Shown: positions 698 to 59,621, numbered from the stretch's first letter. The stretch is DNA of 64,000 nt from an uncultured Pseudomonadales bacterium (GCA_964404025.1 CAYOIJ010000003.1:10727-74726); one strand, 5' to 3'. Translations and numbers: made by a program. The notes: generated from the sequence alone by a model not told the origin.

Positions 698-2041
698 ATG
701 AAGACCTACATTCCCCAATTAAAAAAAACTGACCCAGAAATGGCTGATTTAATTAAAAAGGAGTGTAAGAGGCAGGAGGAAACATTGATGATGATTCCTT
801 CAGAAAATATTGCTTCAGAAGCAGTTCAACAAGCAGTTGGTACTTGCTTGGGAAATAAATACGCTGAGGGCTATCCCAATAAAAGATATTATCAGGGTCA
901 AAAATATGTTGACCTAATCGAAAACTTAACCAAAGAAAGAGCAGTTGAAGCCTTTGGTGTAGTTCATGCTAATGTTCAACCTCTCTCTGGTTCTCCAGCT
1001 AACTTAGCTGTTTATTTGGGACTACTAAAACCTGGAGACACCATTTTGGGTTTAGATCTGTCACACGGTGGACACCTAACTCATGGCTCTAAGGTTTCAA
1101 CTTCTGGCATCTACTACAATTCAGTAGCTTACACTCTGAATAAAGAAGGCAAAATGGATTATGAGGCAATTGAAAAATTAGCCATTAAACATAAGCCTCA
1201 AATTATTGTAGCTGGTATTACTGCTTATCCATTAAAAGTTAACTGGGCTAAATTTGCCAAAGTTGCCGATAAAGTTGGTGCCTATTTGATGGCTGACGTT
1301 GCTCATTTGGCTGGATTGATTGTTTCTGGAGCTTATCCTTCACCCGCGCCACACGTGCATGTGATTACCACCACCACTCATAAAACTCTTCGTGGGCCAA
1401 GAGGCGCCATGATTATGGTTACTAAGAAAGGCATAAAGAAAAATCCTGATTTACCAAAGATTATTGATAGTGCGGTTTTCCCTAGACTACAAGGTGGTCC
1501 TCATATCAATACTATTGCTGGTATTGGCGTTGCCCTAAAAGAGGCCATGTCTCCCCGTTTCAAAAAATATGGAGAACAGGTAATTAAAAATAGCCAAGTT
1601 TTAGCCAAAGAATTAAAAAGCAAGGGATTTCATTTGGTGGCTGGAGGAAGCAATACTCATCTTATCTTAATTGATTTAAAAAATAAGGGAGTAATTGGTA
1701 ATTTAGCGGCAGAAGCATTAGAAGCAGCCAACATCGTACTCAATCGCAACAGTGTGCCTTTCGACACCAATCCACCTTTTTATCCATCTGGCATCAGAAT
1801 GGGTACACCAGGCTTAACTAGCAGAGGAATGAAAGAAGCACAAATGAGCAAAATTGCCAACTGGATTAGTGAAATAATTGAAGACATTGCTAGAATTCAA
1901 AAAGAAGAAAATATTACTTTTGCCCAAGTAAAAAAGAGCTCAGTCCGTAAAAAACTCATTGCCTCTTCCAAAAAAATTAAAGCAGTTCAAAAACAAGTAA
2001 TTCAACTTTGTAAAAAATTTCCTGTCCTGGGCGAATATTAA
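698..2041 (+). CDS. glyA: serine hydroxymethyltransferase
   Basis: The PLP-lysine region VITTTTHKTLRGPRGAMI and SHMT-like sequence are present throughout. It has a ~30-aa Lys-rich C-terminal extension. Confidence 0.92.
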   Translation: MKTYIPQLKKTDPEMADLIKKECKRQEETLMMIPSENIASEAVQQAVGTCLGNKYAEGYPNKRYYQGQKYVDLIENLTKERAVEAFGVVHANVQPLSGSPANLAVYLGLLKPGDTILGLDLSHGGHLTHGSKVSTSGIYYNSVAYTLNKEGKMDYEAIEKLAIKHKPQIIVAGITAYPLKVNWAKFAKVADKVGAYLMADVAHLAGLIVSGAYPSPAPHVHVITTTTHKTLRGPRGAMIMVTKKGIKKNPDLPKIIDSAVFPRLQGGPHINTIAGIGVALKEAMSPRFKKYGEQVIKNSQVLAKELKSKGFHLVAGGSNTHLILIDLKNKGVIGNLAAEALEAANIVLNRNSVPFDTNPPFYPSGIRMGTPGLTSRGMKEAQMSKIANWISEIIEDIARIQKEENITFAQVKKSSVRKKLIASSKKIKAVQKQVIQLCKKFPVLGEY

Positions 2042-2085
2042 ATTAATTAATAATTAAAAACCTCTAATAAATAGAAAGGGTTTTA

Positions 2086-3717
2086 ATGAAATCGGATATT
2101 GAAATTGCTCAAGCAGCTAAACTTAAGCCAATTAAAGAAATTGCAAAATCAATTGCCATTGATGAAAAATATTTAGAATATTATGGCAGTACAAAAGCCA
2201 AAATTAGCTTAGATATTTTAAAAAAAATTGGTCAAAAAAAAGATGGCAAATTAGTCTTAGTTACTGCCATGACTCCCACTCCTGCTGGTGAAGGCAAAAC
2301 TACAACCACTGTAGGTTTGGGGCAAGCATTATGGAGTTTGGGTAAAAAATCAATGATTTGCTTGCGCGAACCTTCTCTTGGTCCAATTTTTGGTATTAAG
2401 GGTGGAGCAGCTGGTGGAGGTCATGCTCAAGTTTTACCCATGGAAGACATTAATCTTCATTTTACTGGTGATCTACATGCTGTCGGTGCAGCTAATAACT
2501 TATTAGCTGCTTTAATTGACAACCATATTCATCACGGCAATAGTCTCGAAATTGATCCACGCAAAATTACTTGGAGGCGCTGTGTCGACATGAGCGATCG
2601 TAGTCTGAGATCAATTGTGATAGCTTTGGGTTCAGCTAATGGCTTAGTTAGAGAAGACGGTTATGATATCACTGTTGCTTCAGAAGTAATGGCTGTTCTT
2701 TGTTTAGCAAAAGACATTAAAGATTTAAAAAAGCGTCTAGAAAAGATGGTTGTTGCCACTAATACTAAAGGTGAACCAATAACTGCCAAAGATTTAAAAG
2801 CTGCCGGAGCAATGACAGTTTTACTCAAGGATGCAATTAAACCCAACCTTGTACAAACTTTAGAGGGATCACCAGCTTTTATTCATGGCGGCCCATTTGC
2901 TAATATTGCTCATGGCTGCAACTCTTTAATTGCTACTAAAACAGCTCTAAAATTAGCGGATATCGTAGTCACTGAGGCTGGCTTCGGTGCTGACTTAGGT
3001 GTTGAAAAATTCCTAGACATTAAATGTCGGATTGGTAAACTCAAACCAAATGCCGTAGTTTTAGTTAGCACTATTCGAGCACTAAAACATCATGGTCAAG
3101 GCGAATTGAAACCTGGCCTAGCTAACCTCGGCAAACACATTGAAAACATCAAAAAATTTGGTTTACCACTAGTAGTAGCTGTTAATAAGTTTAGTACTGA
3201 TACCCCACAGGAAATTAAACTAATTAAACAATATTGTGAAGAACGCGGTACCAAGGCCATTATGTCTGATGTCTGGGCTAAGGGTGCAAAGGGTGGTCAA
3301 GATTTAGCCAAAGAAGTTTTACAGCTAGTTCAACATAAAAATAACTTTAGTTATATCTATAATCCCAAAAAAGGCCTTAAAAACTCAGTGGAAGAAATAG
3401 TGAAAAAAGTTTATGGAGGAGATGGAGTAATTTGGAGTGCTGCTGCTCGCAGAGCAATAAGAAGATTTGAAAAATGGAATATCACTGATTTGCCAATTTG
3501 TATGGCCAAGACTCAGTCTTCAATTTCAGATAATCCTAAATTGCTAGGTAGACCAGAAAACTTTAAAATCAAAGTGAGGCAAATTCGTCTCAGCGCTGGT
3601 GCTGGTTTCTTTGTAGTAATTGCTGGCAGCATTATGACTATGCCAGGCTTACCTAAACAACCTGCCTCAGACAATATCGATATTAATGATCAAGACCTTA
3701 TCGTGGGTTTGTTTTAG
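2086..3717 (+). CDS. fhs: formate--tetrahydrofolate ligase
   Basis: The P-loop [16 protein letters not shown] and FTHFS-family sequence run the full length. Confidence 0.92.
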
Positions 3718-3802
3718 TTAGTTGGCTGCTACAAATAAACTAAAAAATTATTAGTTATTTTAAAACTTCTCAATTAAAATAAGAGAAGTCTGGAGTAAAC
3801 TT

Positions 3803-4660
3803 ATGGCTCAGTTAATTGATAGTCGTGCCCTATCAAAAAAAATCCAAAATAAAATTAAAAAAGAAGTAGCTGCCTTAAATTTTAAACCAGGCTTAGCAGT
3901 GCTTTTAGTTGGCAGCGATCCAGCTTCCCAGGTTTATGTAAACAGCAAAGAAAAAGCTTGTAAAAAAGTTGGTTTCTATAGTGAAAAAATTATTTTAGAT
4001 AAAAATATAACACAGGATAAATTGTTAGTTGAAATTAAAAAGCTAAACAATAATCCAAAAATCCACGCTATTTTAGTTCAATTGCCACTACCCAAGCATT
4101 TAGACGAAAAAATCATAATTGATAATATTGACCCGCACAAAGATGTTGATGTTTTTCATCCCTATAATGTTGGTGAACTCTGCTTACAAAAACGCTTACC
4201 CAAACTCAACGACTTACTAGCTCCCTGCACTCCCAAAGGGATCATGAGAATGTTAGAAGAATATAAAATTGATTTAGAAGGTAAAAAAGCGGTGATCATT
4301 GGTCGCAGTAACCTTGTTGGTAAACCTATTGCGCTTATGCTCTTGGCTAGCAACGCCACAGTAGAGATTTGTCATTCCAAAACAAAGAATTTGACTGAAA
4401 CTAGTGCCCAAGCCGATATTGTTATTGCTGCCTTAGGCCAAGCTAATTTTCTTAAGAAAAACATGGTTAAAAAAGGAGCCATAGTGATTGATGTTGGCAT
4501 CAATCGTACTGATCAAGGCTTAACTGGTGATGTTGATTTTACTGAAGTTGAAAAAATTGCCAAATATATCACTCCAGTTCCTGGAGGAGTAGGGCCAATG
4601 ACTATTGCTTGTCTGTTAGAAAACACCCTTTTGCTGGCCAAAAAATACCGCAAGAAATAA
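3803..4660 (+). CDS. folD: bifunctional methylenetetrahydrofolate dehydrogenase / methenyl-THF cyclohydrolase
   Basis: FolD motifs are present: the YVNSKEKAC region, the GRSNLVGKP NADP-binding site and PVPGGVGPMT. Confidence 0.92.
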   Translation: MAQLIDSRALSKKIQNKIKKEVAALNFKPGLAVLLVGSDPASQVYVNSKEKACKKVGFYSEKIILDKNITQDKLLVEIKKLNNNPKIHAILVQLPLPKHLDEKIIIDNIDPHKDVDVFHPYNVGELCLQKRLPKLNDLLAPCTPKGIMRMLEEYKIDLEGKKAVIIGRSNLVGKPIALMLLASNATVEICHSKTKNLTETSAQADIVIAALGQANFLKKNMVKKGAIVIDVGINRTDQGLTGDVDFTEVEKIAKYITPVPGGVGPMTIACLLENTLLLAKKYRKK

Positions 4661-9108: not shown

Positions 9109-10053
9109 CTAAGCTGGTAAAACTACTCCTTTTTTGGACAATGCCTCTTCAATTAAGTCAATGCTTTTACCACCTAAGTTTTTCACCTTGGATATTTCAG
9201 CTTTATTAGCGGCTAAAAGATCTTTAACAGTCTCAAAACCACCTTTACGCAAAGCGTTAGCAATTCTGGTAGGTAGGTCTAGTTCTTCAACTGTTAGACG
9301 CATTACTTCTAATTCTTCAGGACTAATTTCTGGTAATTCTTCTTCCACTTCCGGTAAAACTGGATCAACAATTTGCTTAAATTGAGCTATTAAAATTTCG
9401 CTAGCCTGTTTAACAGCTTGCAGTGGAGTAACACTACCATCAGTCTGAATATCAAAAACAATACGATCATAATCAGTACGACTACCAACTCGAGTAGCCT
9501 CAACATGATAAGCTACCTTAATCACCGGTGAAAATAGAGCATCAACTGCAATTTGACCAACATTTTCTATTTCAATTTCCTTGGCTAATTTATAGCCCAA
9601 GCCAGACTCAACCACCATTTCAATTTCCAAACTTTTACCCTTAGCAAGAGTTGCCAAGTAAAGATCTTTGTTGATTACTTCAAAACCTGCCTCACATTCA
9701 ATTTCTTTAGCAGTGATTTCTTTAGGACCTTTAGCATTAAGTCTTAAAATACCTGACTCATCACTATCTGATTTAATACGAATGTTTTTTAGATTTAAAA
9801 TTAAATCAACTATATCTTCTTTTAAACCTTCATAGGTACTAAACTGATGATTCACTCCCTCAATACTTAACTTTGTAATAGCCAAACCTGGTAGTGAAGT
9901 TAGTAAAACACGACGAAGTGCATTACCCAGGGTGTGGCCATAGCCATTGTCTAATGGCTCAACAACGATAGTTGAACGTGAACCATTAGTCTCCACCTCA
10001 CTAACAGTAAAAACTGGATTTATAATGTTGTAATTCTCTAAGGCTTTTGCCAT
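9109..10053 (-). CDS. rpoA: DNA-directed RNA polymerase subunit alpha
   Basis: It is 314 aa with alpha NTD and CTD sequence, and sits at the canonical position after rpsD. Confidence 0.92.
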   Translation of the reverse strand: MAKALENYNIINPVFTVSEVETNGSRSTIVVEPLDNGYGHTLGNALRRVLLTSLPGLAITKLSIEGVNHQFSTYEGLKEDIVDLILNLKNIRIKSDSDESGILRLNAKGPKEITAKEIECEAGFEVINKDLYLATLAKGKSLEIEMVVESGLGYKLAKEIEIENVGQIAVDALFSPVIKVAYHVEATRVGSRTDYDRIVFDIQTDGSVTPLQAVKQASEILIAQFKQIVDPVLPEVEEELPEISPEELEVMRLTVEELDLPTRIANALRKGGFETVKDLLAANKAEISKVKNLGGKSIDLIEEALSKKGVVLPA

Positions 10054-37260: not shown

Positions 37261-38217
37261 CTAGTCTTTTATTAATTGTGCTGTTACTACCCCGCGACGT
37301 AAAGTAGTCCCCTCAGGAGTACAAGTCACTAACTTCAACTGACGCACATCGTAGCGTTGAGCTAAAATAAAGGTGTCATCTGGCTTAACCTCTGTCTTGC
37401 TTTGCACAATGTAAGTATATTTAACATTATCATGAGTTAAATATATTTTTTCTCCTCTTTCCAGCAACATAATTTTGCTAAAAATAGAAGTATAGCGACG
37501 AGGGTTATTTTCACTAGGATTGTAGAATTGACGCAAAACAGAATGGCCAAAAAGCACTGGTGAACCCAATTGTCCTGGTAGACCAGTACCAGGATAATGA
37601 ATTAAGCTCTGGTTAAGATCTGTGCCTCCAACCCTTACTTTCGCATTAGTAATATTTAAACTAGGAATATCTAAAGTATATTCAATAAATTCACTTTTAT
37701 TTAATTCTGGAACATCGAGCTCACTACTAAACCAATTACTTAAGTCAGTAAAATCAAGAGCCTGATCTAAAATGACTGGTCCATTTTCAGCACTCTTATT
37801 TGCCTGGCTTTCTTCAAGATCGACCTGAGCTTGAGCGGAAATAAGAGGCGTACTAAGTAATAATTGGGAGTGTGGAACCGGGGACAATAAGGCTAATTTT
37901 TCTTGTTTATTCCAGGGTAAATAATATTCTATCAGAGGCCAAAGCGCAGATAAGGCTAGAACTAAGCCAAAAGCTATTAATGCCAAAGGTAATAAAGTTG
38001 CCCCAAATCTAATTCTTCTTGGCAAACGTCGCCAAAAATTTAATTTAATTTGTTTGTCCAAAACCTGTTCTTCTTTACGACTAACAACGTCTTGTTTTAA
38101 AAAATAATTAACTTTTTTATTCAAATCTTGAATAGCCACCCCTTCCTTGAGAGCTTGACGGTAAAGCTTTAGAATTTGCTTTTTTTGCAGAGATGGTTGG
38201 GAATCTTTTTTGGCCAT
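37261..38217 (-). CDS. sortase-family transpeptidase (membrane-anchored)
   Basis: It has one TM helix. The catalytic His is in LFGHSVL, the catalytic Cys is in the TLxTC-like LKLVTCTPEG, and Arg follows (RRGVV). It lies 5 nt downstream of the 747-aa gene. Confidence 0.75.
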   Translation of the reverse strand: MAKKDSQPSLQKKQILKLYRQALKEGVAIQDLNKKVNYFLKQDVVSRKEEQVLDKQIKLNFWRRLPRRIRFGATLLPLALIAFGLVLALSALWPLIEYYLPWNKQEKLALLSPVPHSQLLLSTPLISAQAQVDLEESQANKSAENGPVILDQALDFTDLSNWFSSELDVPELNKSEFIEYTLDIPSLNITNAKVRVGGTDLNQSLIHYPGTGLPGQLGSPVLFGHSVLRQFYNPSENNPRRYTSIFSKIMLLERGEKIYLTHDNVKYTYIVQSKTEVKPDDTFILAQRYDVRQLKLVTCTPEGTTLRRGVVTAQLIKD

Positions 38218-50922: not shown

Positions 50923-51987
50923 CTAATAGGTGGGTAGAAAAATTTTGACATTATCTGGCCTAATAATCACTTCTTCAAAACCACGCTCTACAATAATTCG
51001 TGCTGCTTTACGCACCGCACCCTTAAGAGTGCGCTGCAGCGTTCTTACTCCAGCATCAAAACCCAAAGGACGCACTAAGGTTGGCCAAATTGCTTCATCA
51101 ATTTTGAATTGACTTTCTTTCAAACCAGCCTCTTTGATAATGCTTGGCAAGATATACTTTTTAGCAATTACTATCTTTTCTTCATCGCTATAAGATGGCA
51201 TATCAATCCGTTCCATACGATCAATTACTGCGGTTGCAATGCGTCGAGTGTTATTACAAGTAGCAATGAAAATTGCTTGGCTCAAATTAACTGGGTAATT
51301 AATGTAATTATCTACAAAAGCATGATTTTGAGCTGGATCTAACAGCTCTACTAAAACCCCCATAATATCATTATTGGCTTCATCAGCGGCTCGATCAATT
51401 TCGTCAAGCAAAATCACAGGATTCATTGTTTTAGCTTCACACAAACCCTGTATCACTGCTCCGGGTTGAGCTTCTAAAATCAGTCGCGATTCACCACGCA
51501 GTTCTTTAGCAGATACCATGCCGCCAATGGGAATGCGCACTAATTGACGCCCTAGCGCTTCTGCCAAAGAATAGGCAAAAGTAGTTTTTCCAGTGCCCAC
51601 TAGACCGACTAATAGTAAAATCGGTGCAGAGAATTCTTGGCTAGTAAAGTTTTGTTTTTGTAAATTAAGAATAGCTAAATATTCTAAAAAACGATCCTTA
51701 ACCTCTTTTAAACCATAATGATGTTTATCAAAAACTATTTTAGCCGCCTGAATATCTAGAGTGTCTTCACTTTTTTGAGCAAAAGGGATCTTAATTACCC
51801 AATCTAAATAACGAGAAACTTTGTCGTATTTTTCATCATAATTTCCCAATTTGACACTGCGCTCTAGAGAGCTTAATTCTTTTTTTAATTTTGATAAAAG
51901 CTCTTCTGGCAATTGAATTTGTTCAATTTTTGCTTTAAGCTCGTCAAGTTCTTGATTTAAAATTTCTTCAGAATTAATTTGAGACAT
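50923..51987 (-). CDS. Lon-like AAA+ ATPase. It has a Lon ATPase module but no LON N-domain and no S16 protease domain.
   Basis: It aligns by eye to the Lon region ...YLDWVIKIPF...DKHHYGLKEVKDRFLEYLA...GLVGTGKTTFAYSLAEALGRQLVRIPIGG...ILLDEIDR. The protein ends at 354 aa. Confidence 0.65.
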   Translation of the reverse strand: MSQINSEEILNQELDELKAKIEQIQLPEELLSKLKKELSSLERSVKLGNYDEKYDKVSRYLDWVIKIPFAQKSEDTLDIQAAKIVFDKHHYGLKEVKDRFLEYLAILNLQKQNFTSQEFSAPILLLVGLVGTGKTTFAYSLAEALGRQLVRIPIGGMVSAKELRGESRLILEAQPGAVIQGLCEAKTMNPVILLDEIDRAADEANNDIMGVLVELLDPAQNHAFVDNYINYPVNLSQAIFIATCNNTRRIATAVIDRMERIDMPSYSDEEKIVIAKKYILPSIIKEAGLKESQFKIDEAIWPTLVRPLGFDAGVRTLQRTLKGAVRKAARIIVERGFEEVIIRPDNVKIFLPTY

Positions 51988-51993
51988 AAAAAA

Positions 51994-52512
51994 CTAAAAT
52001 TGCTTTGCTTGAAGTGCGAAGCCCAAACCAATACTAAGCATAGCTAAAGCCAAGAATATAATAGTCGTAGTAGTTGAACCAGCTTGTGGCAAAGTTCCAT
52101 CCGAAGCACTGGCTATTGCTTCTGTTGATGCTGTTGACCCTGTTGCTTCAGTACTATCACCAATAGTTAAAACAAAATCTAGTGTTTCTGCTCCAGATTC
52201 TAAATTAAACTGATGCCTGCCCTCAGTTAATGATGACACCAAATTAGTCCAACCCCCCTCTGCATCAGCTGTCGCAGTTTGTGTTGAATCATCAATTAAA
52301 ATTGATACGGTGGCCGAAGGAGAAGCTAAACCTGTTAATTCAAATGTGCCACCAGAATAAGTGTAGTTCTTTAAACTGCCTCCTAGATCTAGTCCCGAGA
52401 CATCTATGGGTCCTAAGCCCGTAATCTTTAAAGAAGCAGCCGAAACTTTTTTGACAAAAAGCAAGGGAAAGAGAAGTAATAAAAGTACAGTGCTAATAAA
52501 AAATTTTTTCAT
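51994..52512 (-). CDS. small secreted surface protein with a C-terminal LPQAG sortase sorting signal (paralog B)
   Basis: Signal peptide MKKFFISTVLLLLLFPLLFVKKVSA. The C-terminus is GTLPQAG-STTTTIIFLALAMLSIGLGFAL-QAKQF. It shares blocks with paralog A (GLASPSATV / GTASPSAEV; ETLDFVL / ESLDLVV). Confidence 0.7.
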   Translation of the reverse strand: MKKFFISTVLLLLLFPLLFVKKVSAASLKITGLGPIDVSGLDLGGSLKNYTYSGGTFELTGLASPSATVSILIDDSTQTATADAEGGWTNLVSSLTEGRHQFNLESGAETLDFVLTIGDSTEATGSTASTEAIASASDGTLPQAGSTTTTIIFLALAMLSIGLGFALQAKQF

Positions 52513-52535: not shown

Positions 52536-53474
52536 TTATTTTTTTTGTGCAGCTAGTAATTCTAACATTTGATCACGACGCAACAAGCCAGTCTTGGCTC
52601 CATAAAATTTAACAACACTACTAGCATTTCGCACTCCCCAAACGATCGCCTCCTCAACTTTTCGCTTATCTAACAAAGCAGCAATGTAAGCAGCTGCAAA
52701 AGAATCTCCAGCCCCTGTATTATCTATGGCCTTACTAGACTGGCCCTCATAGATAAATTTCTTTTTACCATACAAGTACACTTCTCCACCTTTTTTACCC
52801 ATTGTCACAATTACCTGTGGAAAATGGGCTAGAATCTCTTGTTGGACCTCAGCTAACATTAGCCATTCCTGTTGATTAACAAAAAATACTTCACAGGGAA
52901 CTTTCTCTAAATCAAAAGTCTTATTTATTAATAACTCTATTTCACTTTTACCAGGATTCCAAGACAACTTAGTGTCCTGATCCTTAATTAAACTACGAAA
53001 AATTTTTGATAAAGTGTCTTTCTGACCAGCAATACTAGACAAATGAACCCAAGTCGCTTGAGTCAACCAAAAAGAAGGTATGTCATAAGGATCGAGCATA
53101 GAAGCTGCACCTCGATAAGTCATGGCTACTCGATTACCACCTTTGGTTACGAGCAGCACGCTTCCACCAGTTCTTTCTAATTTTTCTTTAATTAACAATT
53201 GTGTGTTCACTCCTTCACGTTCAAAATCATTCATTATCAAATCAGAAAACTCATCCTGACCAGTTTCAGAAATAACAGCCACCCTGTAACCTAAGCGTGC
53301 TAAAGCCACTGAAGTATTGCTAGCACCACCACCAGTAAATATATGAAAATCACTTAGGGCCAATTTGTCACCATAGGTTAAAATTTGTTCTTGCTTACTA
53401 TGACTAGCCTCTAGATCTTTAGAGCTAATAAAAATGTCAACTAGTGAAGATCCAATACTGATGCAGTCGTACAT
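52536..53474 (-). CDS. PfkB-family carbohydrate or nucleoside kinase (ribokinase-like)
   Basis: GGGASNTSVALARLG and the PfkB signature DNTGAGDSFAAAYI are present. Confidence 0.8.
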   Translation of the reverse strand: MYDCISIGSSLVDIFISSKDLEASHSKQEQILTYGDKLALSDFHIFTGGGASNTSVALARLGYRVAVISETGQDEFSDLIMNDFEREGVNTQLLIKEKLERTGGSVLLVTKGGNRVAMTYRGAASMLDPYDIPSFWLTQATWVHLSSIAGQKDTLSKIFRSLIKDQDTKLSWNPGKSEIELLINKTFDLEKVPCEVFFVNQQEWLMLAEVQQEILAHFPQVIVTMGKKGGEVYLYGKKKFIYEGQSSKAIDNTGAGDSFAAAYIAALLDKRKVEEAIVWGVRNASSVVKFYGAKTGLLRRDQMLELLAAQKK

Positions 53475-53540
53475 AGGCAGGTAAAAACATTGTACAAGAA
53501 AATTAAGTAGATTTGCAAGACTTGAGATTATTTTTTTATC

Positions 53541-54161
53541 TTATTCTAAGCGCTTTTGCATTTCTTCTTCGAACAAGTGAAGAGCTACTTTAAACTCTTC
53601 TAAATTATCAACAATTCGATAAACCTTTGATTCCTTGTAGCCAATTAAAAAATGTTTATGAATAACATCCATCACTTCGTGCCAGAAATGACCATATAAA
53701 ATCATTGGCTTATGATTGCCATAATAAAGGTGAGCTAAAAGCCAAGCAGTAGCCCATTCACTCAAAGTGCCGGTCCCACCCTGAAAGCAAACGAAAAGAT
53801 CTGCATTATCCATGAGACCAAACATACGTTCTATATAGTTACTAGTTTTAATTTCTCGATCAACTATATTTTCAAAATCACGACCCTCAAATTCAGGCAT
53901 ATTAACTGGGTTAAAGGTAACCGCTAAAATTTCACCATTCACTGACTTTGCCCCTTTGCTAGCTGCACCCATTACCCCAGGACCACCACCGTTGATCACA
54001 ATCTTTTTTTGGCTAGCCACATAAGCGGCTACTGCAAAAGCAGCTTGGCAAACCGGATGGTCAGTGTTTAAGTCTGCACCTCCATAAAAAGCAATTTTCT
54101 CTACTTTACATAAGCGGTTTGCTCTAGGAACCACTATTTTTTTTCGTTCCTCTTGATTCAT
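53541..54161 (-). CDS. LOG-family protein (nucleotide 5'-monophosphate phosphoribohydrolase / TIGR00730 Rossmann fold)
   Basis: GGGPGVMGAAS and the LOG motif GGTGTLSE (PGGxGTxxE-like) are present. Confidence 0.75.
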   Translation of the reverse strand: MNQEERKKIVVPRANRLCKVEKIAFYGGADLNTDHPVCQAAFAVAAYVASQKKIVINGGGPGVMGAASKGAKSVNGEILAVTFNPVNMPEFEGRDFENIVDREIKTSNYIERMFGLMDNADLFVCFQGGTGTLSEWATAWLLAHLYYGNHKPMILYGHFWHEVMDVIHKHFLIGYKESKVYRIVDNLEEFKVALHLFEEEMQKRLE

Positions 54162-54823
54162 AAAAGTTCTTTCTTTAAATTACTAAAAGCTAAATCAAAA
54201 TTTTGGGCATTAAACAATGCAGATCCGACAGCCACTTGGTCAACACCAGCTTGTTTTAAAATCTTGATGTGCTGCTGTTTAACTCCACCATCAACACTGA
54301 TTTTAAACTGTTTATTTAGCTTCTCTGCTAGAGTTTTTAACTCTTTAATTTTATCAAGCACTAAATTATCAAAACTTTGCCCTTGTTGACCAGCCTCAAC
54401 TGCCATTAACAAAAAATGATCTGACCATTCCCAAGAAGCATCTTCTATGCTCTCAAGAGGTGTAAAGAGATCCAGTGCTAGACCGGCTTGCCAACCAGCT
54501 TTTTTAATTTCTTCTAAGAAATCTACCTGCTGAGACATCTTTTCAACCTGACCAATTACTGATCTTGTTGGTAATCGCTTACCACACTCAATCAATTCCC
54601 AAACATAATCCATTGGTTCCTCTGTCATTAAATGAAAATCTATTGACAATTTACCAAAATCAAAATCCAGCAAATCACTTGGATAAACAGTAATATTATT
54701 TGTAAATAAAGCATCAATTATATCTATTTGTATAACCTCAATGTCTACTTGATTTTTCACTAACTCTAACTGCTGAGCAAAAGTAGCCAAACTATCAGTT
54801 AAAATAGCTGGATTAATTTTCAT
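54158..54823 (-). CDS. divergent ribulose-phosphate 3-epimerase-like TIM-barrel protein
   Basis: It aligns to Rpe at INPAILTDSLATF (PSILSADFA), IDFHLMT (DVHLMV), AVEAGQQGQSF (SVNPGFGGQSF), SVDGGVK (EVDGGVK) and VAVGSALF (VAGSAIF). The first metal-binding His (HxDVMD) is replaced by IQIDIID. Confidence 0.55.
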   Translation of the reverse strand: MKINPAILTDSLATFAQQLELVKNQVDIEVIQIDIIDALFTNNITVYPSDLLDFDFGKLSIDFHLMTEEPMDYVWELIECGKRLPTRSVIGQVEKMSQQVDFLEEIKKAGWQAGLALDLFTPLESIEDASWEWSDHFLLMAVEAGQQGQSFDNLVLDKIKELKTLAEKLNKQFKISVDGGVKQQHIKILKQAGVDQVAVGSALFNAQNFDLAFSNLKKELL

Positions 54824-55271
54824 TGCCAGCCCTCATTTGTTCTTCATATTCAGCAATTTGTTTAATTCTTCTTAAATGTCTTTCTTCATCGCTAGGTTTT
54901 GTATTAATAATTGTTAACAAATAATCTAAAACTTTCTGCTTGCTTAAAAAATCAGCTCCAAAAGCAAAAACATTAGCATGATTATCCTTAACCGCATGTT
55001 TGGCGATGCTTTGATCATAAACATCAACTGCTCGCACGCCTTTAACTTTGTTAGCAGCAATTACCATACCCGAACCAGAACGACAAAATAATAAACCAAT
55101 GCTGTCATCTTTAGCATGAGCTATTTCTTCTGCTAGTTTAAAAGCAAATTTAGGATAGTCATCATCTGGATCAAGCTTCATTGGACCGAGATCAACAACT
55201 TGCTCATTTAAGAATTCTTTAACTTCTTCCTTAAGATTAAATCCTCCATGATCACTGGCCATATAAATTTT
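54813..55271 (-). CDS. rpiB: ribose-5-phosphate isomerase B. The true start is at MKIYMASDHGG; the ORF-track start at 55325 is an upstream extension.
   Basis: SDHGGFNLKE and the catalytic-Cys region LLFCRSGSGMVIAANKVKGVRAV are present. Confidence 0.82.
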   Translation of the reverse strand, partial: KIYMASDHGGFNLKEEVKEFLNEQVVDLGPMKLDPDDDYPKFAFKLAEEIAHAKDDSIGLLFCRSGSGMVIAANKVKGVRAVDVYDQSIAKHAVKDNHANVFAFGADFLSKQKVLDYLLTIINTKPSDEERHLRRIKQIAEYEEQMRAGNEN

Positions 55272-55364
55272 CATAGACTTATCATAACAAATATATGAGA
55301 AAAGCAAAAAAGAAAAACCCCACATTAATAAAAAGGTGGGGTTTTAATTGACAAATGAGAAAAA

Positions 55365-55565
55365 TTATTTTTTCTTCAATACTGGCATGCCAGTGCGAGA
55401 TGTCTCAACAACCATGTAACCGGCTGGGACTGCACTCAACGAACCATCACGAATGTCACGTGCAAAAAAGTAAATGGTTTGCACACGACCATTTTTCAGG
55501 GTCACATCACGAGTGTGAAGGTAATAAGTTTGACCCTTTTTATTGGTGTAGCTAAAAGCTGCCAT
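55365..55565 (-). CDS. small conserved hypothetical protein (66 aa)
   Basis: A strong SD (AAGGAG) lies 8 nt upstream. The sequence MAAFSYTNKKGQTYYLHTRDVTLKNGRVQTIYFFARD...VPAGYMVVETSRTGMPVLKKK has the look of a conserved small protein. It is preferred over the fully overlapping plus-strand ORF. Confidence 0.5.
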   Translation of the reverse strand: MAAFSYTNKKGQTYYLHTRDVTLKNGRVQTIYFFARDIRDGSLSAVPAGYMVVETSRTGMPVLKKK

Positions 55566-56318: not shown

Positions 56319-56885
56319 TTAAGTCTTTTGCCAATCCCTACCATACCATAAACCAATCGCTAATTTGGCAATTGCCACATACTCTTCAGTACGATCAATG
56401 AAGCCTTTGGTTAAAATTCCAATTGCCCCACTTTTACGTTTCAAATCTAAATCATCAAATAAATCACCGATAACATGCCCGAGTTCTTGGCCAGCTAAGA
56501 TTCCATTAGCTAAAACCTGAGGCAAACGAAATCTAGCTCCGCTAGCAGAATAAATATCTCCTTTTTGATCGAGAACACTAATCCAAACTGTGGACCAGAG
56601 CTCACTATCATTTTGAACAAATTTTGGACAATAAACCCCACCCTCTGCACCAATAAACAAAGCTTCTTCATCTGGCAAACAATAGGATTTTGCCAAAACT
56701 ATTTTTTTTAATGCCTTAGCTCGATTAATAGAACCTCTTAGAGTTTCTTCATCTGTCATTGGTTGTTCCGAAACCCCACTGGCAACTGCAAGTCCACGCA
56801 CTTCAACGTCGGGATAGTTATCACTAGCAGCAATGGTGATAGCATTAATCTTAACTGGATTTTCTGAAGCTACAAAAATTTTCAT
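56319..56885 (-). CDS. yjjX: inosine/xanthosine triphosphatase (YjjX family non-canonical NTP pyrophosphatase)
   Basis: MKIFVASENPVKINAI...ASGVSEQPMTDEETLRGSINRAKA aligns with E. coli YjjX (VCATTNPAKI...[22 protein letters not shown]). Confidence 0.7.
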   Translation of the reverse strand: MKIFVASENPVKINAITIAASDNYPDVEVRGLAVASGVSEQPMTDEETLRGSINRAKALKKIVLAKSYCLPDEEALFIGAEGGVYCPKFVQNDSELWSTVWISVLDQKGDIYSASGARFRLPQVLANGILAGQELGHVIGDLFDDLDLKRKSGAIGILTKGFIDRTEEYVAIAKLAIGLWYGRDWQKT

Positions 56886-56953
56886 TAGTCACTTTTATTA
56901 TTCTAAATGCTTATATTGTTCTAAATACAGTACTTAACACTCATCAGTTGGCG

Positions 56954-57889
56954 CTATTCACTTAAAAAACCTCGCAAAATTAAATCTTCAGCCTCTCCAG
57001 CACTCAAACCTCGACTGCGCAGATAAAGAATTTGCTCCGCTGACAACTTACCAATTGAAGCCTCATGGGTTAATTGGGCGTTGGGGTTTTCTACCAATAA
57101 TTCGGGAATTAGTTCTAACTTCGCACTTTTATCAAGCATTAAGCCACCACAATCCAAGTGACCCTTGGCAGCAGCTCTAGCTATAATTCTGGAACGCGCT
57201 TTCACTTCAGCAGCTTTTCGACCAACTATGCGTAAAGTAGAAATGGCATTGGCGCCCGCTCCATTTAAATAAGCAATATCTGTTAAACTCATTTTAGTAT
57301 CTTGACAATTAGCCAGTATTTTTAAATCAGAGCGGGCGCCCTTTGCTAGATGAATTTGTGCGTTCAACTGCATGGCCTTGGCCGCTTTTTCAATTTTATA
57401 AGTATATTCTAAACTAGCTCCTTGTTCTAAAAAAAACTCATAATTAGTGCTAACCTGATCATTTTTGTCCCAATCATGAACATGCTGATAATATAGACTA
57501 GCTCCTTGGCGTAGTAGCAGTTTACCTTTTGCTTGGTGAGAGCGGCCTTTTCCTACAACTTTTTCACTAAGTAAACTCGCTGACTCACAAGTACCAGTCA
57601 AATCAACATACAAGCCAGCCTCTATCACAATCAGGTTGTTTAATTGTTGTTTAGTGCCGGGCTTATCCAGGGAGACACAGCCCAAAAAAGAACAACTGGG
57701 CTGCTCTTTAATCCAAACAAAATATCCTTCTTTAGGTTTATCAACAAAATACTGTCTAGTCCAAGGGAATTTGTCCCAAGCCTCTACTGAGCTTAACACT
57801 TCTGAGCCAGACATACTAAGAATTTCTTCAATATGATGGTCTAGTTGTTTATAAGCAGTTTTTACAGCTTTCGCACTTTTGATAGCCAT
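56954..57889 (-). CDS. sufD: SufB/SufD-family Fe-S cluster assembly protein (short, 311 aa)
   Basis: The C-terminus has the SufBD beta-helix and the motif QLTHEASIGKLSAEQILYLRSRGLSAGEAEDLILRGF. It overlaps sufC by 41 nt. Confidence 0.7.
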   Translation of the reverse strand: MAIKSAKAVKTAYKQLDHHIEEILSMSGSEVLSSVEAWDKFPWTRQYFVDKPKEGYFVWIKEQPSCSFLGCVSLDKPGTKQQLNNLIVIEAGLYVDLTGTCESASLLSEKVVGKGRSHQAKGKLLLRQGASLYYQHVHDWDKNDQVSTNYEFFLEQGASLEYTYKIEKAAKAMQLNAQIHLAKGARSDLKILANCQDTKMSLTDIAYLNGAGANAISTLRIVGRKAAEVKARSRIIARAAAKGHLDCGGLMLDKSAKLELIPELLVENPNAQLTHEASIGKLSAEQILYLRSRGLSAGEAEDLILRGFLSE

Positions 57890-58565
57890 ATTTTTTAATA
57901 GTCTTTAATACTTTTTTAATGTCTCGACTTTGGCAAACTAATTCTCCCTGACGCAAAATAGCAATGCGATCGGGTTTAATTTCATCTAGAACTGCTCCAG
58001 AATGAGTGATAATTAATAAGGCTATTTTTCGCTTTTTTAATTCTTGCTTAAGGGCAGTTAAAACTTTTCCTAAATTCTCAATATCTAAACCAGAATCTAG
58101 CTCATCAATAACCAGTAGCTTTGGGTTTTGATTTAATACTTGAACTAATTCGGCAATCTTCTTTTCTCCACCAGAGAAATTACTATTAATTTCTCTAAAC
58201 AAAAGAGAGTCTGCTAGTTCATAGTCATAGTCACCATCGTGAATTTCTTGAATTAAATTTAGTAAAGTAAATAGTTCAACTCCTTTAATTGCTGGAGATT
58301 GCTGCCAAACAAAAGCTAGGCCTGTTTTAGCTCGTTCTTCTGGTTTAAGAGCAATTAGATCTTGACCAGCAAATTCAATTAAACCTGCTCCCACTTGATA
58401 ATTATCATCGCCTAGTAAAACCCTAACCAAAGTTGATTTACCAGCTCCATTAGCTCCCATTAAAGCAACTAATTCTCCACTATTAATAGCCAAAGAAATA
58501 TTTTTTAGAATTAATTTCTTGTCAGCTTCTACATCTAGATGCTTAATTTTGAGTAAATTTTTCAT
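57849..58565 (-). CDS. sufC: Fe-S cluster assembly ATPase SufC
   Basis: Walker A GANGAGKST, the ABC signature NFSGGEKK and Walker B LLVIDELDSGLD are present. Confidence 0.85.
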   Translation of the reverse strand: MKNLLKIKHLDVEADKKLILKNISLAINSGELVALMGANGAGKSTLVRVLLGDDNYQVGAGLIEFAGQDLIALKPEERAKTGLAFVWQQSPAIKGVELFTLLNLIQEIHDGDYDYELADSLLFREINSNFSGGEKKIAELVQVLNQNPKLLVIDELDSGLDIENLGKVLTALKQELKKRKIALLIITHSGAVLDEIKPDRIAILRQGELVCQSRDIKKVLKTIKKYGYQKCESCKNCL

Positions 58566-59053
58566 TATTTATGAAAAGCCTTGTTCAAAATATTTTTAAC
58601 AAACTGGCCTCTTTCACCACCAAAATCATAACTGTCCAAATCATTTAAACTAACCCAGGTAAACTCCTGATGTTCTCTTGAAATTGTGATTTCTGCCTGA
58701 TCGCTTTCTGAAAAATCTAAATACCAGCCACAATTAATGCTATAAAGATCCCGATCAGCTTCAAAGTAACTAGCAAAATAAATAAGATGCTCAAAATCAA
58801 AAAGACCTGGTTCAACTAATAAATTACTCTCTTCTTTGACTTCTCTAGCAATATCCAATTGGTGTAGATTAGCAGTGCTTTCTTGCTCTAGACTAGGCCA
58901 TTCAGCATTGCCACCTGGTAAATCCCAGGCATTAGGACGTGAAATTGCGTTATTGCTGCGCTTTAAAATTAAAGCCTCTTTTTGACCCTGATTAACTCTG
59001 ACGATTGCTACCTTGTGTAAAAATTTAACTTTTTTGCTTAGTTGCTGCTTCAT
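58565..59053 (-). CDS. Nudix hydrolase
   Basis: Nudix box ...DLPGGNAEWPSLEQESTANLHQLDIAREVKEESNL. Confidence 0.65.
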   Translation of the reverse strand: MKQQLSKKVKFLHKVAIVRVNQGQKEALILKRSNNAISRPNAWDLPGGNAEWPSLEQESTANLHQLDIAREVKEESNLLVEPGLFDFEHLIYFASYFEADRDLYSINCGWYLDFSESDQAEITISREHQEFTWVSLNDLDSYDFGGERGQFVKNILNKAFHK

Positions 59054-59081
59054 AAAAACTTTCTGTCTCTGATTATAACAG

Positions 59082-59621
59082 CTAACTGTTTAGTAATTTA
59101 AAAGCCAAAATTAACTCAGATCTAACTTGTTCGAAAATTTCTTCTTTCGACATTTTTTTAATTTGATCTAAACTAAACCAATCAATTTTTTCTGACTCAC
59201 TGTTTTGCTCTAAAGTAGACAAATCAACTTCACTGGCCAACAAATATTGAAAATCTAGGTGTTGCTCACAACCTTTTAGCCAATCTTTTTCTCTTTTCTT
59301 TTGACCAGCTAAACGATATTGATAATTTTTTTTTGAAATCCAATGTAAGCTAATACTGATTGGCACAGGATGAAAAGAAATATCCTTATCTTTTTTATCA
59401 AAATTTAAATCAAAGTTGGGTGGACTAATAGCCTTCACCTTTAATCCAGTTTCCTCAAGAAATTCTCTTTCAGCTGCCTGATGTAAAAACTCGCCTTCTT
59501 CAAGATGGCCTCCGGGAGTTAACCAGCTTTTTAATTTTTTATGTTTTAATAACAAAACTCGCTGATCAATAACTAATACTCCAGAGGCAGTATAACAAAA
59601 TTGTGGCTGGATTGTTTTCAT
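59082..59621 (-). CDS. Nudix hydrolase
   Basis: Nudix box LTPGGHLEEGEFLHQAAEREFLEETGL. Confidence 0.75.
   Translation of the reverse strand: MKTIQPQFCYTASGVLVIDQRVLLLKHKKLKSWLTPGGHLEEGEFLHQAAEREFLEETGLKVKAISPPNFDLNFDKKDKDISFHPVPISISLHWISKKNYQYRLAGQKKREKDWLKGCEQHLDFQYLLASEVDLSTLEQNSESEKIDWFSLDQIKKMSKEEIFEQVRSELILAFKLLNS

Follow-up and report, generated by a model that had tools for sequence, protein, structure and literature searches.

A cluster of RpiB, Rpe-like, LOG-like and PfkB genes in a CPR genome

We analysed a 64,000-nucleotide stretch of DNA, referred to here as the window, which corresponds to positions 10,727-74,726 of the 122,925-bp contig record ENA ERZ4240871 NODE_90. The host is an ultra-small bacterium of the Candidate Phyla Radiation (CPR), also called Patescibacteria. 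The window carries four consecutive minus-strand genes encoding, in this order, RpiB, an Rpe-like protein, a LOG-like protein and a PfkB kinase. Their positions, counted from the first letter of the stretch, are as follows:

54813-55274, minus strand: rpiB, ribose-5-phosphate isomerase B, first gene of the unit (153 aa)
54158-54823, minus strand: Rpe-like gene, divergent ribulose-phosphate 3-epimerase homologue (221 aa)
53541-54161, minus strand: LOG-family (SLOG) gene, predicted nucleoside 5'-monophosphate phosphoribohydrolase (206 aa)
52536-53474, minus strand: PfkB-family sugar(-phosphate) kinase gene, most plausibly a fructose-6-phosphate (possibly sedoheptulose-7-phosphate) 1-kinase and not a ribokinase (312 aa)

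The first two genes overlap by 11 nt (ATGAAAATTAA), the Rpe-like and LOG-like genes overlap by 4 nt (ATGA), and a 66-nt spacer separates LOG from PfkB. An earlier reading of the window made from the sequence alone (the sequence-only reading) had described four same-strand genes with overlaps of 4 and 11 nt, and both were found as stated. The gene order given in its text was also the one observed, although that of its title was not, and its end coordinate, 55271, fell 3 nt short of rpiB, which runs to 55274. The rpiB start is the ATG at 55274-55272, as in the public gene call (153 aa). A longer RpiB form of 170 aa, produced by a mechanical open reading frame (ORF) reaching 55325, was rejected, since the upstream gene's terminator accounts for the first 17 of its codons. 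Because nearly all genes between 7.6 and 64 kb lie on the minus strand, same-strand packing is uninformative here; what goes beyond chance is the conserved neighbourhood described below.

Pfam confirmed the four families that the sequence-only reading had assigned: PF02502 (126.1 bits) for RpiB, PF00834 (126.6, threshold 21.1) for the Rpe-like protein, PF18306 (56.6, threshold 26.3) together with PF03641 (45.3, threshold 27) for the LOG-like protein and PF00294 (131.4, cut-off 25.8) for the kinase. Among the NCBIfam models, only that of the RpiB/LacAB subfamily reached its cut-off (TIGR00689, 126.9 bits versus 88.3). The Rpe, LOG and kinase models all stayed under their curated thresholds, so that the term divergent fits more than the epimerase. 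When aligned to the solved structures 6mu0 and 3he8, RpiB kept every catalytic residue, namely the DH(GG) motif, the catalytic Cys in FCRSGSG, HN..N and RH..R.

A separate clade of LOG-like proteins with a predicted LOG fold

LOG-family enzymes are phosphoribohydrolases that release ribose-5-phosphate from nucleoside 5'-monophosphates (NMPs); many, or at least several, non-plant members accept AMP, and the family's 'lysine decarboxylase' label goes back to a misannotation (PMC11228631). Across 23 aligned LOG-like sequences, GGGPG.M, FEGR, Arg112 and GGTGTLSE(Glu135)W were invariant, and Arg112 and Glu135 aligned with the catalytic Arg and Glu of LOG enzymes. A profile search against solved structures listed type II LOGs first (5wq3 with 68 bits, 9us2, 1wek and 5zi9), then type I LOGs and then PpnN. 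The 50 best PDB matches of the AlphaFold model (pLDDT 84.7, pTM 0.85) were all LOG or PpnN, with template-modelling (TM) scores of 0.64-0.77, E values down to 2e-12 and 16-25% identity. According to this model, the protein has a LOG fold and is closest to type II LOGs, which headed the structure matches (TM 0.72-0.77 to 1wek, 5wq3, 5zi9 and 9us2). With type II LOGs and E. coli PpnN/YgdH it also shares the GGGxGxM loop, the catalytic Arg and the Glu of the GGxGTxxE motif, and the same chemistry is to be expected (NMP + H2O giving base + ribose-5-phosphate). The protein is expected to be an NMP phosphoribohydrolase.

We detected 742 homologues of the LOG-like protein. The best 120 of these 742 were 59-100% identical to it and included few named ones (Pacebacteria, Woesebacteria, 'LOG family protein'). 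When 1.84 billion cluster representatives were searched exhaustively by profile, just 40 reached E <= 1e-30; the next-best proteins were of about 180 aa, scored about 100 bits and were borderline TIGR00730 members. In a rough neighbour-joining (NJ) tree, the clade formed a long separate branch. In five out of six comparisons, LOG showed the highest conservation among the four proteins. A role of the SLOG protein in anti-phage defence was rejected, as no PADLOC match was obtained at E <= 0.01.

Several features weigh against simply transferring the activity of known LOGs to this clade. The protein scored below the NCBIfam cut-offs of TIGR00730 (50.6 versus 96.35) and TIGR00725 (48.8 versus 106.9) and was merely 22-25% identical to type II LOGs and PpnN. 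Its motif reads QGGTGTLSEW instead of PGGxGTxxE; across the clade, whose motif is GG(T/S)GT(L/I/V)SE(W/F), Gln, Lys or Asn replaces Pro and Ser replaces Asp, and the Lys that follows the catalytic Arg is missing. Where canonical LOGs have the LPHEQ..NPY segment, the clade has a 7-residue insertion that ends in FEG(R/K). Owing to these deviations and to the insertion, the substrate specificity could differ. The protein also differs from PpnN in lacking PpnN-type regulatory domains, and from canonical LOGs in being encoded inside an operon of the pentose-phosphate pathway (PPP), as described below.

The LOG clade adjoins pentose-phosphate and glycolysis genes

A first scan of GTDB species representatives was swamped by generic LOG motifs, and 12 out of 80 loci belonged to the clade. 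As a second sample, a metagenome collection was scanned for the motif specific to the clade by means of a degenerate DNA pattern designed by hand, which yielded 120 independent loci; neighbour counts rest on the 69 of them that were evaluable on each side of LOG. Among the GTDB representatives, 11 of the 12 clade loci had a PPP or glycolysis gene adjoining LOG (Rpe, GAPDH or RpiB upstream; transketolase or PfkB downstream). The same applied to about 86-90% of the evaluable positions in the metagenome loci. Specifically, Rpe was the upstream neighbour in 52 loci, GAPDH in 9 and RpiB in 1 (together 62/69), and the downstream neighbour was TktN, from a split transketolase, in 46 and PfkB in 11 (together 57/69). 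In contrast, at canonical LOG loci outside CPR, RpiB was adjacent in 1 out of 63 and Rpe or transketolase in none (0/63). The transketolase that the sequence-only reading had suggested looking for was thus present in relatives, directly downstream of LOG in two thirds of the loci.

The usual operon reads RpiB..GAPDH-Rpe-LOG-TktN-TktC-aldolase-PfkB-(2-hydroxyacid dehydrogenase). Pfam analysis of the neighbours gave RpiB-Rpe-LOG-TktN-TktC-(DeoC/LacD-family aldolase)-PfkB-(D-2-hydroxyacid dehydrogenase) in two loci of more distant relatives (L010 and L011; locus numbers run up to L208), and other arrangements were GAPDH-LOG-TktN-TktC (L006), RpiB-Rpe-LOG-TktN-TktC (L007) and LOG-PfkB followed by a class II FBA (L009). 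The window's own form, RpiB-Rpe-LOG-PfkB, recurred in L095, L150 and L172 and in a named Pacebacteria genome. The LOGs of Saccharibacteria and Peregrinibacteria belonged to another branch of the NJ tree, yet they also lay beside RpiB-Rpe or transketolase (L043, L048, L019 and L051), for example as GAPDH-RpiB-Rpe-LOG (L043), GAPDH-RpiB-Rpe-PfkB-LOG (L048) or TktN-TktC-LOG (L051). In distant lineages, the flanks changed and Rpe-LOG-Tkt persisted. The cluster in the window is a local, shortened version of a PPP and lower-glycolysis operon that is widespread in CPR/Patescibacteria.

Some further observations were made on these loci. The transketolase was split in two genes in L007, L008, L010, L011, L019 and most of L089-L208, one for an N-terminal part of about 285 aa that binds thiamine pyrophosphate, the other, of about 320 aa, for the pyrimidine-binding and C-terminal portions. 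In L084, a 282-aa gene without Pfam match (9137-9985) was inserted between Rpe and LOG. The typical CPR operon was also carried by metagenome-assembled genome records (L002, L005, L008, L009, L011, L012, L018 and that of protein P0119) with the titles 'uncultured Pseudomonadales', 'Gammaproteobacteria', 'Anaerolineales' and 'Vitreimonas sp.'; these records are probably mislabelled or mis-binned.

An epimerase homologue with a substituted metal ligand

The divergence of the epimerase homologue, already pointed out by the sequence-only reading, was borne out both by its score under the NCBIfam Rpe cut-off (TIGR01163, 123.5 versus 212.6) and by its metal/catalytic tetrad. In an alignment with solved Rpe and AlsE structures, this tetrad was Q-D-H-D instead of the canonical H-D-H-D: Gln takes the place of the first metal-binding His (His34 of S. 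pyogenes Rpe), and Asp36, His67 and Asp176 are kept. Among 80 LOG-linked Rpe homologues (loci L002-L208), the tetrad was QDHD in 49, HDHD in 13, QDQD in 10 and SDQD in 3. The metal preference has probably changed, judging from these substitutions. Epimerase chemistry is plausible, because both acid/base Asp residues were near-invariant in the 80 homologues, and a role as Rpe would fit, since the neighbouring transketolase of the relatives needs xylulose-5-phosphate.

The PfkB kinase shows a Pfk-2-like feature and is linked to aldolases in some relatives

The kinase is a member of the PfkB superfamily, as indicated by its Pfam score and by the invariant D13, G49, N53 and T253-D257 (TGAGD motif). 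Its best NCBIfam models were bacterial ribokinase (TIGR02152, 108.8 versus a cut-off of 299.65) and ATP-dependent ribose-1-phosphate kinase (102.5). The ribokinase, ribose-1-phosphate kinase, IolC and fructokinase models gave similar sub-threshold scores for all 13 PfkB orthologues. Since these curated models remained under threshold and a small NJ tree merely grouped the CPR kinases together, family-level methods did not settle the substrate.

We then considered individual residues. The positions of Asn14, Lys43 (motif I, XGKG) and Glu143 of the ribokinase RbsK are Leu, Gly and Ile in the window's kinase. None of 42 PfkB homologues had Lys at the motif-I position, where Gly, Asn or Ala was found. 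Asp13, Lys37, Asn53, Trp142 and Asp257 were invariant in all 42, as was Arg115 with one Lys exception, and the invariant residues were the same whether the gene adjoined LOG or an aldolase. In a profile alignment, in which the RbsK control reproduced its PDB score of 112.7 bits exactly and the E. coli Pfk-2 sequence was entered by hand, Lys37 aligned with Lys27 of Pfk-2. In Pfk-2, the motif-I Lys is replaced by glycine, leaving room for a ketose, and Lys27 from the partner subunit stands in for it and binds the 1- and 6-phosphates (PMC6429617). The window's kinase thus combines a small residue at the motif-I position with a lid lysine at the position of Pfk-2 Lys27.

The gene context adds to this. 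Out of 44 related PfkB genes, 16 lay within 400 nt of a fructose-1,6-bisphosphate (FBP) aldolase gene on the same strand and 21 were next to LOG. The linked aldolases comprised seven DhnA-type class I enzymes (PF01791), six class I enzymes of PF00274 (344-394 bits) and three class II enzymes (PF01116). A DeoC-DeoK (deoxyribose) reading of the PF01791 aldolase and its kinase was rejected because this aldolase matched DhnA-type class I FBP aldolase/ADH synthase and not DeoC. That the kinase stays constant while the aldolase family changes fits a kinase that makes the substrate of the aldolase and is hard to reconcile with a ribose or nucleoside kinase. A comparable gene has been described in Nanosynbacter lyticus, where TM7x_02415, a 'ribokinase' next to FBA, is glucose-induced and was predicted to be a pfkB-type phosphofructokinase in a 2025 study (PMC12815258).

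Other results count against the analogy with Pfk-2. Among the solved relatives of the PfkB profile, YdjH came first (154.5 bits), ahead of ribokinases, adenosine kinases and MJ0406, and Pfk-2 was not among the 60 best. With the same profile, RbsK reached 112.7 bits versus 52.3 for Pfk-2, so that the kinase is overall nearer to ribokinase, and it falls outside the Pfk-2/FruK/LacC subfamily (TIGR03168, 45.4 versus 216.4). Furthermore, the motif-I Lys is also absent in adenosine and nucleoside kinases, and the analogy therefore consists of one aligned lysine and the gene context. The window's own kinase has no aldolase neighbour, its neighbours being LOG and a secreted protein, and it is only 26-30% identical to Saccharibacteria PfkBs.

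The alternative is a ribokinase or nucleoside kinase working upstream of LOG or in parallel with it, either from nucleoside and ATP to NMP and then ribose-5-phosphate, or from ribose and ATP to ribose-5-phosphate, along the lines of the sequence-only reading, which had described a PfkB ribokinase-like kinase. The two top NCBIfam matches named above speak for it, as do the direct adjacency to LOG in 21 of the 44 loci, including the window, and the motifs GSSLVD and GGGASNT, which resemble those of adenosine and nucleoside kinases. The kinase shares the fold and branch of RbsK and keeps the equivalents of Asp16, Gly41-Gly42, Asn46 and Asp255; it retains Asp13, Gly-Gly and Asn53, which bind the ribofuranose, as well as the catalytic Asp257. 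A PfkB cytidine kinase is also said to feed an NMP-cleaving enzyme in the archaeal pentose-bisphosphate pathway (Aono et al. 2015). However, every score lies far under the equivalog cut-offs, the equivalents of Lys43, Asn14 and Glu143 are all missing, and the relatives are found next to aldolases rather than to rbs transport genes, which leaves three unrelated FBP aldolase families beside one orthologous group without explanation. The published prediction and the glucose induction of TM7x_02415 are likewise contrary to a ribose or nucleoside kinase. On balance, the residues and the gene context give about an even chance that the kinase phosphorylates fructose-6-phosphate or sedoheptulose-7-phosphate at C1. 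A ribokinase or nucleoside kinase is a distinctly weaker candidate, and some other activity is weaker still.

A putative route from nucleotide ribose to fermentable sugar phosphates

The sequence-only reading had proposed that the cluster channels nucleotide ribose into the PPP. This central idea was strongly backed by the comparative results, with LOG lying between Rpe and transketolase in relatives. In the explanation that we favour by a little over even chances, the LOG-like protein would be the entry enzyme, hydrolysing the N-glycosidic bond of NMPs that come from scavenged or turned-over RNA and nucleotides into base and ribose-5-phosphate. RpiB would convert ribose-5-phosphate to ribulose-5-phosphate, and the divergent Rpe would convert this to xylulose-5-phosphate. 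The pentose phosphates would then be rearranged by the split transketolase that relatives encode directly downstream of LOG. PfkB would act at the far end, phosphorylating C1 of fructose-6-phosphate and possibly of sedoheptulose-7-phosphate, and an FBP aldolase would cleave the product, so that pentose carbon could reach trioses without PfkA and without transaldolase. GAPDH and the D-2-hydroxyacid dehydrogenase would complete the fermentation. The conserved arrangement suggests that ribose from scavenged nucleotides is channelled into sugar fermentation in these cells. The analysis shows the order of the genes, the families and the fold, the catalytic residues and the conserved neighbourhood; the substrates, the catabolic direction of flux and co-transcription are inferred. 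The kinase may well be a phosphofructokinase, an outcome that the sequence-only reading had named as contrary to its proposal; its kinase step is then lost and was probably misassigned, and the pathway idea stands, supported and extended, with the kinase moved to the pathway exit.

By established stoichiometry, three pentose phosphates yield two fructose-6-phosphate and one glyceraldehyde-3-phosphate. If phosphofructokinase were lacking, the greater part of the pentose carbon would get no further than fructose-6-phosphate, and such an enzyme would be valuable in a pentose-catabolic operon. The operons encode RpiB, Rpe, transketolase, aldolase and kinase and no transaldolase. A tblastn search with two transaldolase sequences entered by hand covered 208 loci, or about 2 Mb, and found transaldolase in one of them (L192), which serves as positive control. 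These results suggest a transaldolase-free pentose pathway in these CPR operons. A bypass of transaldolase by phosphofructokinase and aldolase through sedoheptulose-1,7-bisphosphate is established in Entamoeba histolytica and cellulolytic clostridia (PMC7029132, PMC12203962). The CPR operons hold the enzyme set needed for this bypass. They differ from the known cases in that these use pyrophosphate-dependent PfkA-family enzymes, whereas the candidate here is a ribokinase-like PfkB whose activity on sedoheptulose-7-phosphate is purely inferred, and in that the cluster of the window is without aldolase and transketolase genes.

The proposed route resembles the AMP phosphorylase/ribose-1,5-bisphosphate (R15P) isomerase/form III RuBisCO pathway of archaea and some CPR bacteria in detaching the ribose-phosphate of nucleotides from the base and passing it to central carbon metabolism. 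A PfkB-family kinase reportedly takes part in the archaeal pentose-bisphosphate pathway as well (Sato et al. 2007, Aono et al. 2015). In contrast to that pathway, the cleavage by LOG would be hydrolytic and not phosphorolytic, its product would be ribose-5-phosphate and not R15P, and the route would continue through RpiB, Rpe and transketolase instead of R15P isomerase and RuBisCO. AMP phosphorylase, R15P isomerase and RuBisCO did not turn up in the loci examined, in which no sequence search was aimed at them.

Some points weigh against the complete route in this host. When the large non-ribosomal ORFs of the window were scanned with Pfam, no transketolase, aldolase, transaldolase or GAPDH came up (the hits were SHMT, FTHFS, FolD, AlaRS, sortase, YceG and a phosphoribosyltransferase), and the contig's gene tables, covering record positions 1,424-82,577, list none of the four either. 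With transketolase, aldolase and GAPDH missing from the cluster and not found in the roughly 82 kb covered, a complete pathway in the host is putative. The search for transketolase and transaldolase that the sequence-only reading had suggested thus succeeded for transketolase in relatives and found neither enzyme in the 82 kb of the host contig. Finally, the direction of flux is not derivable from gene context.

Alternative explanations of the LOG protein and of its neighbourhood

A rather unlikely alternative, though one to be taken seriously, is that LOG acts on nucleotides for pool balancing, for sanitation or for the supply of ribose-5-phosphate to phosphoribosyl pyrophosphate (PRPP) and base salvage, like PpnN, so that its link with the PPP would be a shared ribose-5-phosphate pool and not catabolism. 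E. coli PpnN is itself a LOG-domain NMP nucleosidase, and the gene string of the window includes two NUDIX genes, an ITP/XTP-type NTPase, UDG, RNase J and PNPase, with a phosphoribosyltransferase gene at 44.5-45.2 kb. CPR genomes are without de novo nucleotide synthesis, and their scavenged pools need rebalancing (PMC6031116). However, the constant neighbours of the clade (Rpe, transketolase, GAPDH, aldolase and 2-hydroxyacid dehydrogenase) form a catabolic, fermentative set, the NUDIX and phosphoribosyltransferase genes are not constant across the clade, and no PRPP synthetase turned up in the loci, which were not searched for it systematically. It is improbable, in turn, that the LOG-like protein was recruited to a non-nucleotide substrate and is a PPP enzyme proper, for example one that hydrolyses R15P or PRPP to ribose-5-phosphate or performs some other sugar-phosphate step to fill the transaldolase gap. 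Such a role would explain why most operons have LOG placed between Rpe and transketolase and why it is the best-conserved operon protein. It would also agree with the absence of transaldolase from 207 of the 208 loci, with the changes around the active site (Gln or Lys for Pro, Ser for Asp, the FEGR insertion) and with the compactness of the well-separated clade (40 representatives at E <= 1e-30). Nevertheless, the protein still has both catalytic residues of LOG enzymes, Arg and Glu, as well as their nucleotide-phosphate loop, PfkB and aldolase already offer a known transaldolase bypass, and no LOG-fold enzyme is known to act on a non-nucleotide substrate.

That the adjacency reflects an inherited gene order without functional meaning, as a housekeeping string in a compact single-strand genome, seems quite improbable. 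In the close relatives of the window, the whole NUDIX-to-FtsK region is collinear and nearly all window genes share one strand, which weighs against reading function into the cluster. As conservation among close relatives is weak evidence by itself, our argument rests on the distant loci, in which Rpe-LOG-Tkt persists although the flanks have changed. The association is also repeated in the second LOG branch (Saccharibacteria and Peregrinibacteria) and absent from the 63 non-CPR LOG loci. The classical role of LOG as a cytokinin-activating enzyme is the least credible reading. It was proposed for the LOG of a rhizosphere Saccharibacterium (PMC6031116) and could draw on the family name and on a weak match to the cytokinin-specific model NF058542, but this match (36.5 bits) is far under the cut-off of 300. 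Moreover, the clade comes from CPR of groundwater, bioreactors and sludge, is hard-wired to PPP genes and has no neighbouring genes tied to isoprenoids or to adenylate isopentenyltransferase. We retain the LOG-fed pentose-phosphate route with PfkB at its far end as the favoured explanation.

The chemistry proposed for LOG matches that already known from LOG and PpnN enzymes, the PPP steps are textbook knowledge, and a pfkB-type phosphofructokinase has been published for one Saccharibacterium. What appears new in the literature searched is a distinct, CPR-restricted LOG clade within a PPP operon, between Rpe and transketolase and in several CPR phyla, together with its companion, the Gln-substituted Rpe, and the wide extent of the coupling between PfkB and aldolases. 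No paper linking LOG to the PPP in CPR/Patescibacteria was found in that literature, a bounded negative that is not proof of novelty; the cytokinin proposal was the only earlier reading met, and these genes go unmentioned in the main text of the Southlakia Tn-seq paper. A large part of bacterial diversity belongs to CPR/Patescibacteria, which lack nucleotide synthesis and have poorly understood carbon and energy sources. NMPs were among the medium supplements in enrichment co-cultures of other Patescibacteria (PMC10936435). If the LOG clade is the entry enzyme of the operon, it would provide a hydrolytic route from scavenged nucleotides or host RNA to fermentable sugar phosphate, distinct from the AMP phosphorylase/RuBisCO shunt, and would give a function to a gene annotated as hypothetical, TIGR00725/TIGR00730 or LOG-family protein. 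The comparison of the loci also extends the TM7x prediction, according to which a misannotated PfkB 'ribokinase' is the 'missing' phosphofructokinase of CPR, by showing this kinase beside three aldolase families in several CPR phyla.

Transcription signals and flanking genes

Three candidate transcription signals were found around the cluster:

55306-55345, minus strand: intrinsic terminator of the upstream 66-aa gene and 5' boundary of the transcription unit, with a 10-bp G+C-rich stem and a U-run
55281-55289, minus strand: extended -10-like element TGTTATGAT, possible promoter, ending 7 nt before the rpiB ATG and read by eye
53489-53518, minus strand: promoter-like site TTGCAA-18-TACAAT, possible internal pfkB promoter, from a consensus scan of the LOG-PfkB spacer

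The terminator stem (55345-55336/55323-55314) folds with -14.3 kcal/mol (z = -4.5), and none of 200 shuffled sequences folded as well. Since this terminator lies directly upstream, rpiB begins a new transcription unit. The consensus promoter scan did not list the -10-like element at 55281-55289, and no Shine-Dalgarno sequence was found between the terminator and the rpiB ATG. A -10-like element only 7 nt before the ATG, together with the lack of a Shine-Dalgarno sequence, suggests that the rpiB mRNA is leaderless. RpiB, Rpe and LOG are probably translationally coupled, given the overlaps of their genes. PfkB may be reached by read-through, as no terminator was found between LOG and PfkB, and may in addition have its own promoter; the TTGCAA and TACAAT hexamers are kept in the closest relative (L002), though the rest of the spacer differs, and are absent in L083.

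The gene upstream of the terminator is a 66-aa ORF, MAAFSYTNKKGQTYYLH..., at 55365-55565 (minus strand), equipped with a good Shine-Dalgarno sequence (AAGGAG) and a strong terminator of its own. Pfam, NCBIfam and PADLOC gave no match for it. Its product is the most conserved protein of the neighbourhood, being 78-98% identical in relatives whose LOG is 47-75% identical. Just upstream of the cluster, the region 56319-59621 (minus strand) encodes the ITP/XTP-type NTPase (DUF84), SufD-like and SufC-like proteins and the two NUDIX hydrolases, and UDG and RNase J are encoded downstream. This string of NUDIX, NTPase, UDG and RNase J genes could reflect a wider theme of nucleotide turnover in the lineage.

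The gene that follows pfkB (51994-52512, minus strand) encodes the secreted protein, which combines an LPQAG motif with a hydrophobic stretch and a basic tail and thereby resembles a sortase substrate; at a distance of 14 kb there is a sortase gene (37261-38217, minus strand). Next to it, a Lon-like protein (50923-51987, minus strand) consists of the AAA+ module and lid alone, equivalent to positions 252-568 of the 795-position Lon model, with both the N-terminal domain and the protease domain absent. A version of about 352 aa of this protein is conserved downstream of PfkB in relatives. At the other end of the window, SHMT, formate-tetrahydrofolate ligase and FolD are encoded together (698-4660, plus strand) and form a folate one-carbon module in an otherwise minimal genome.

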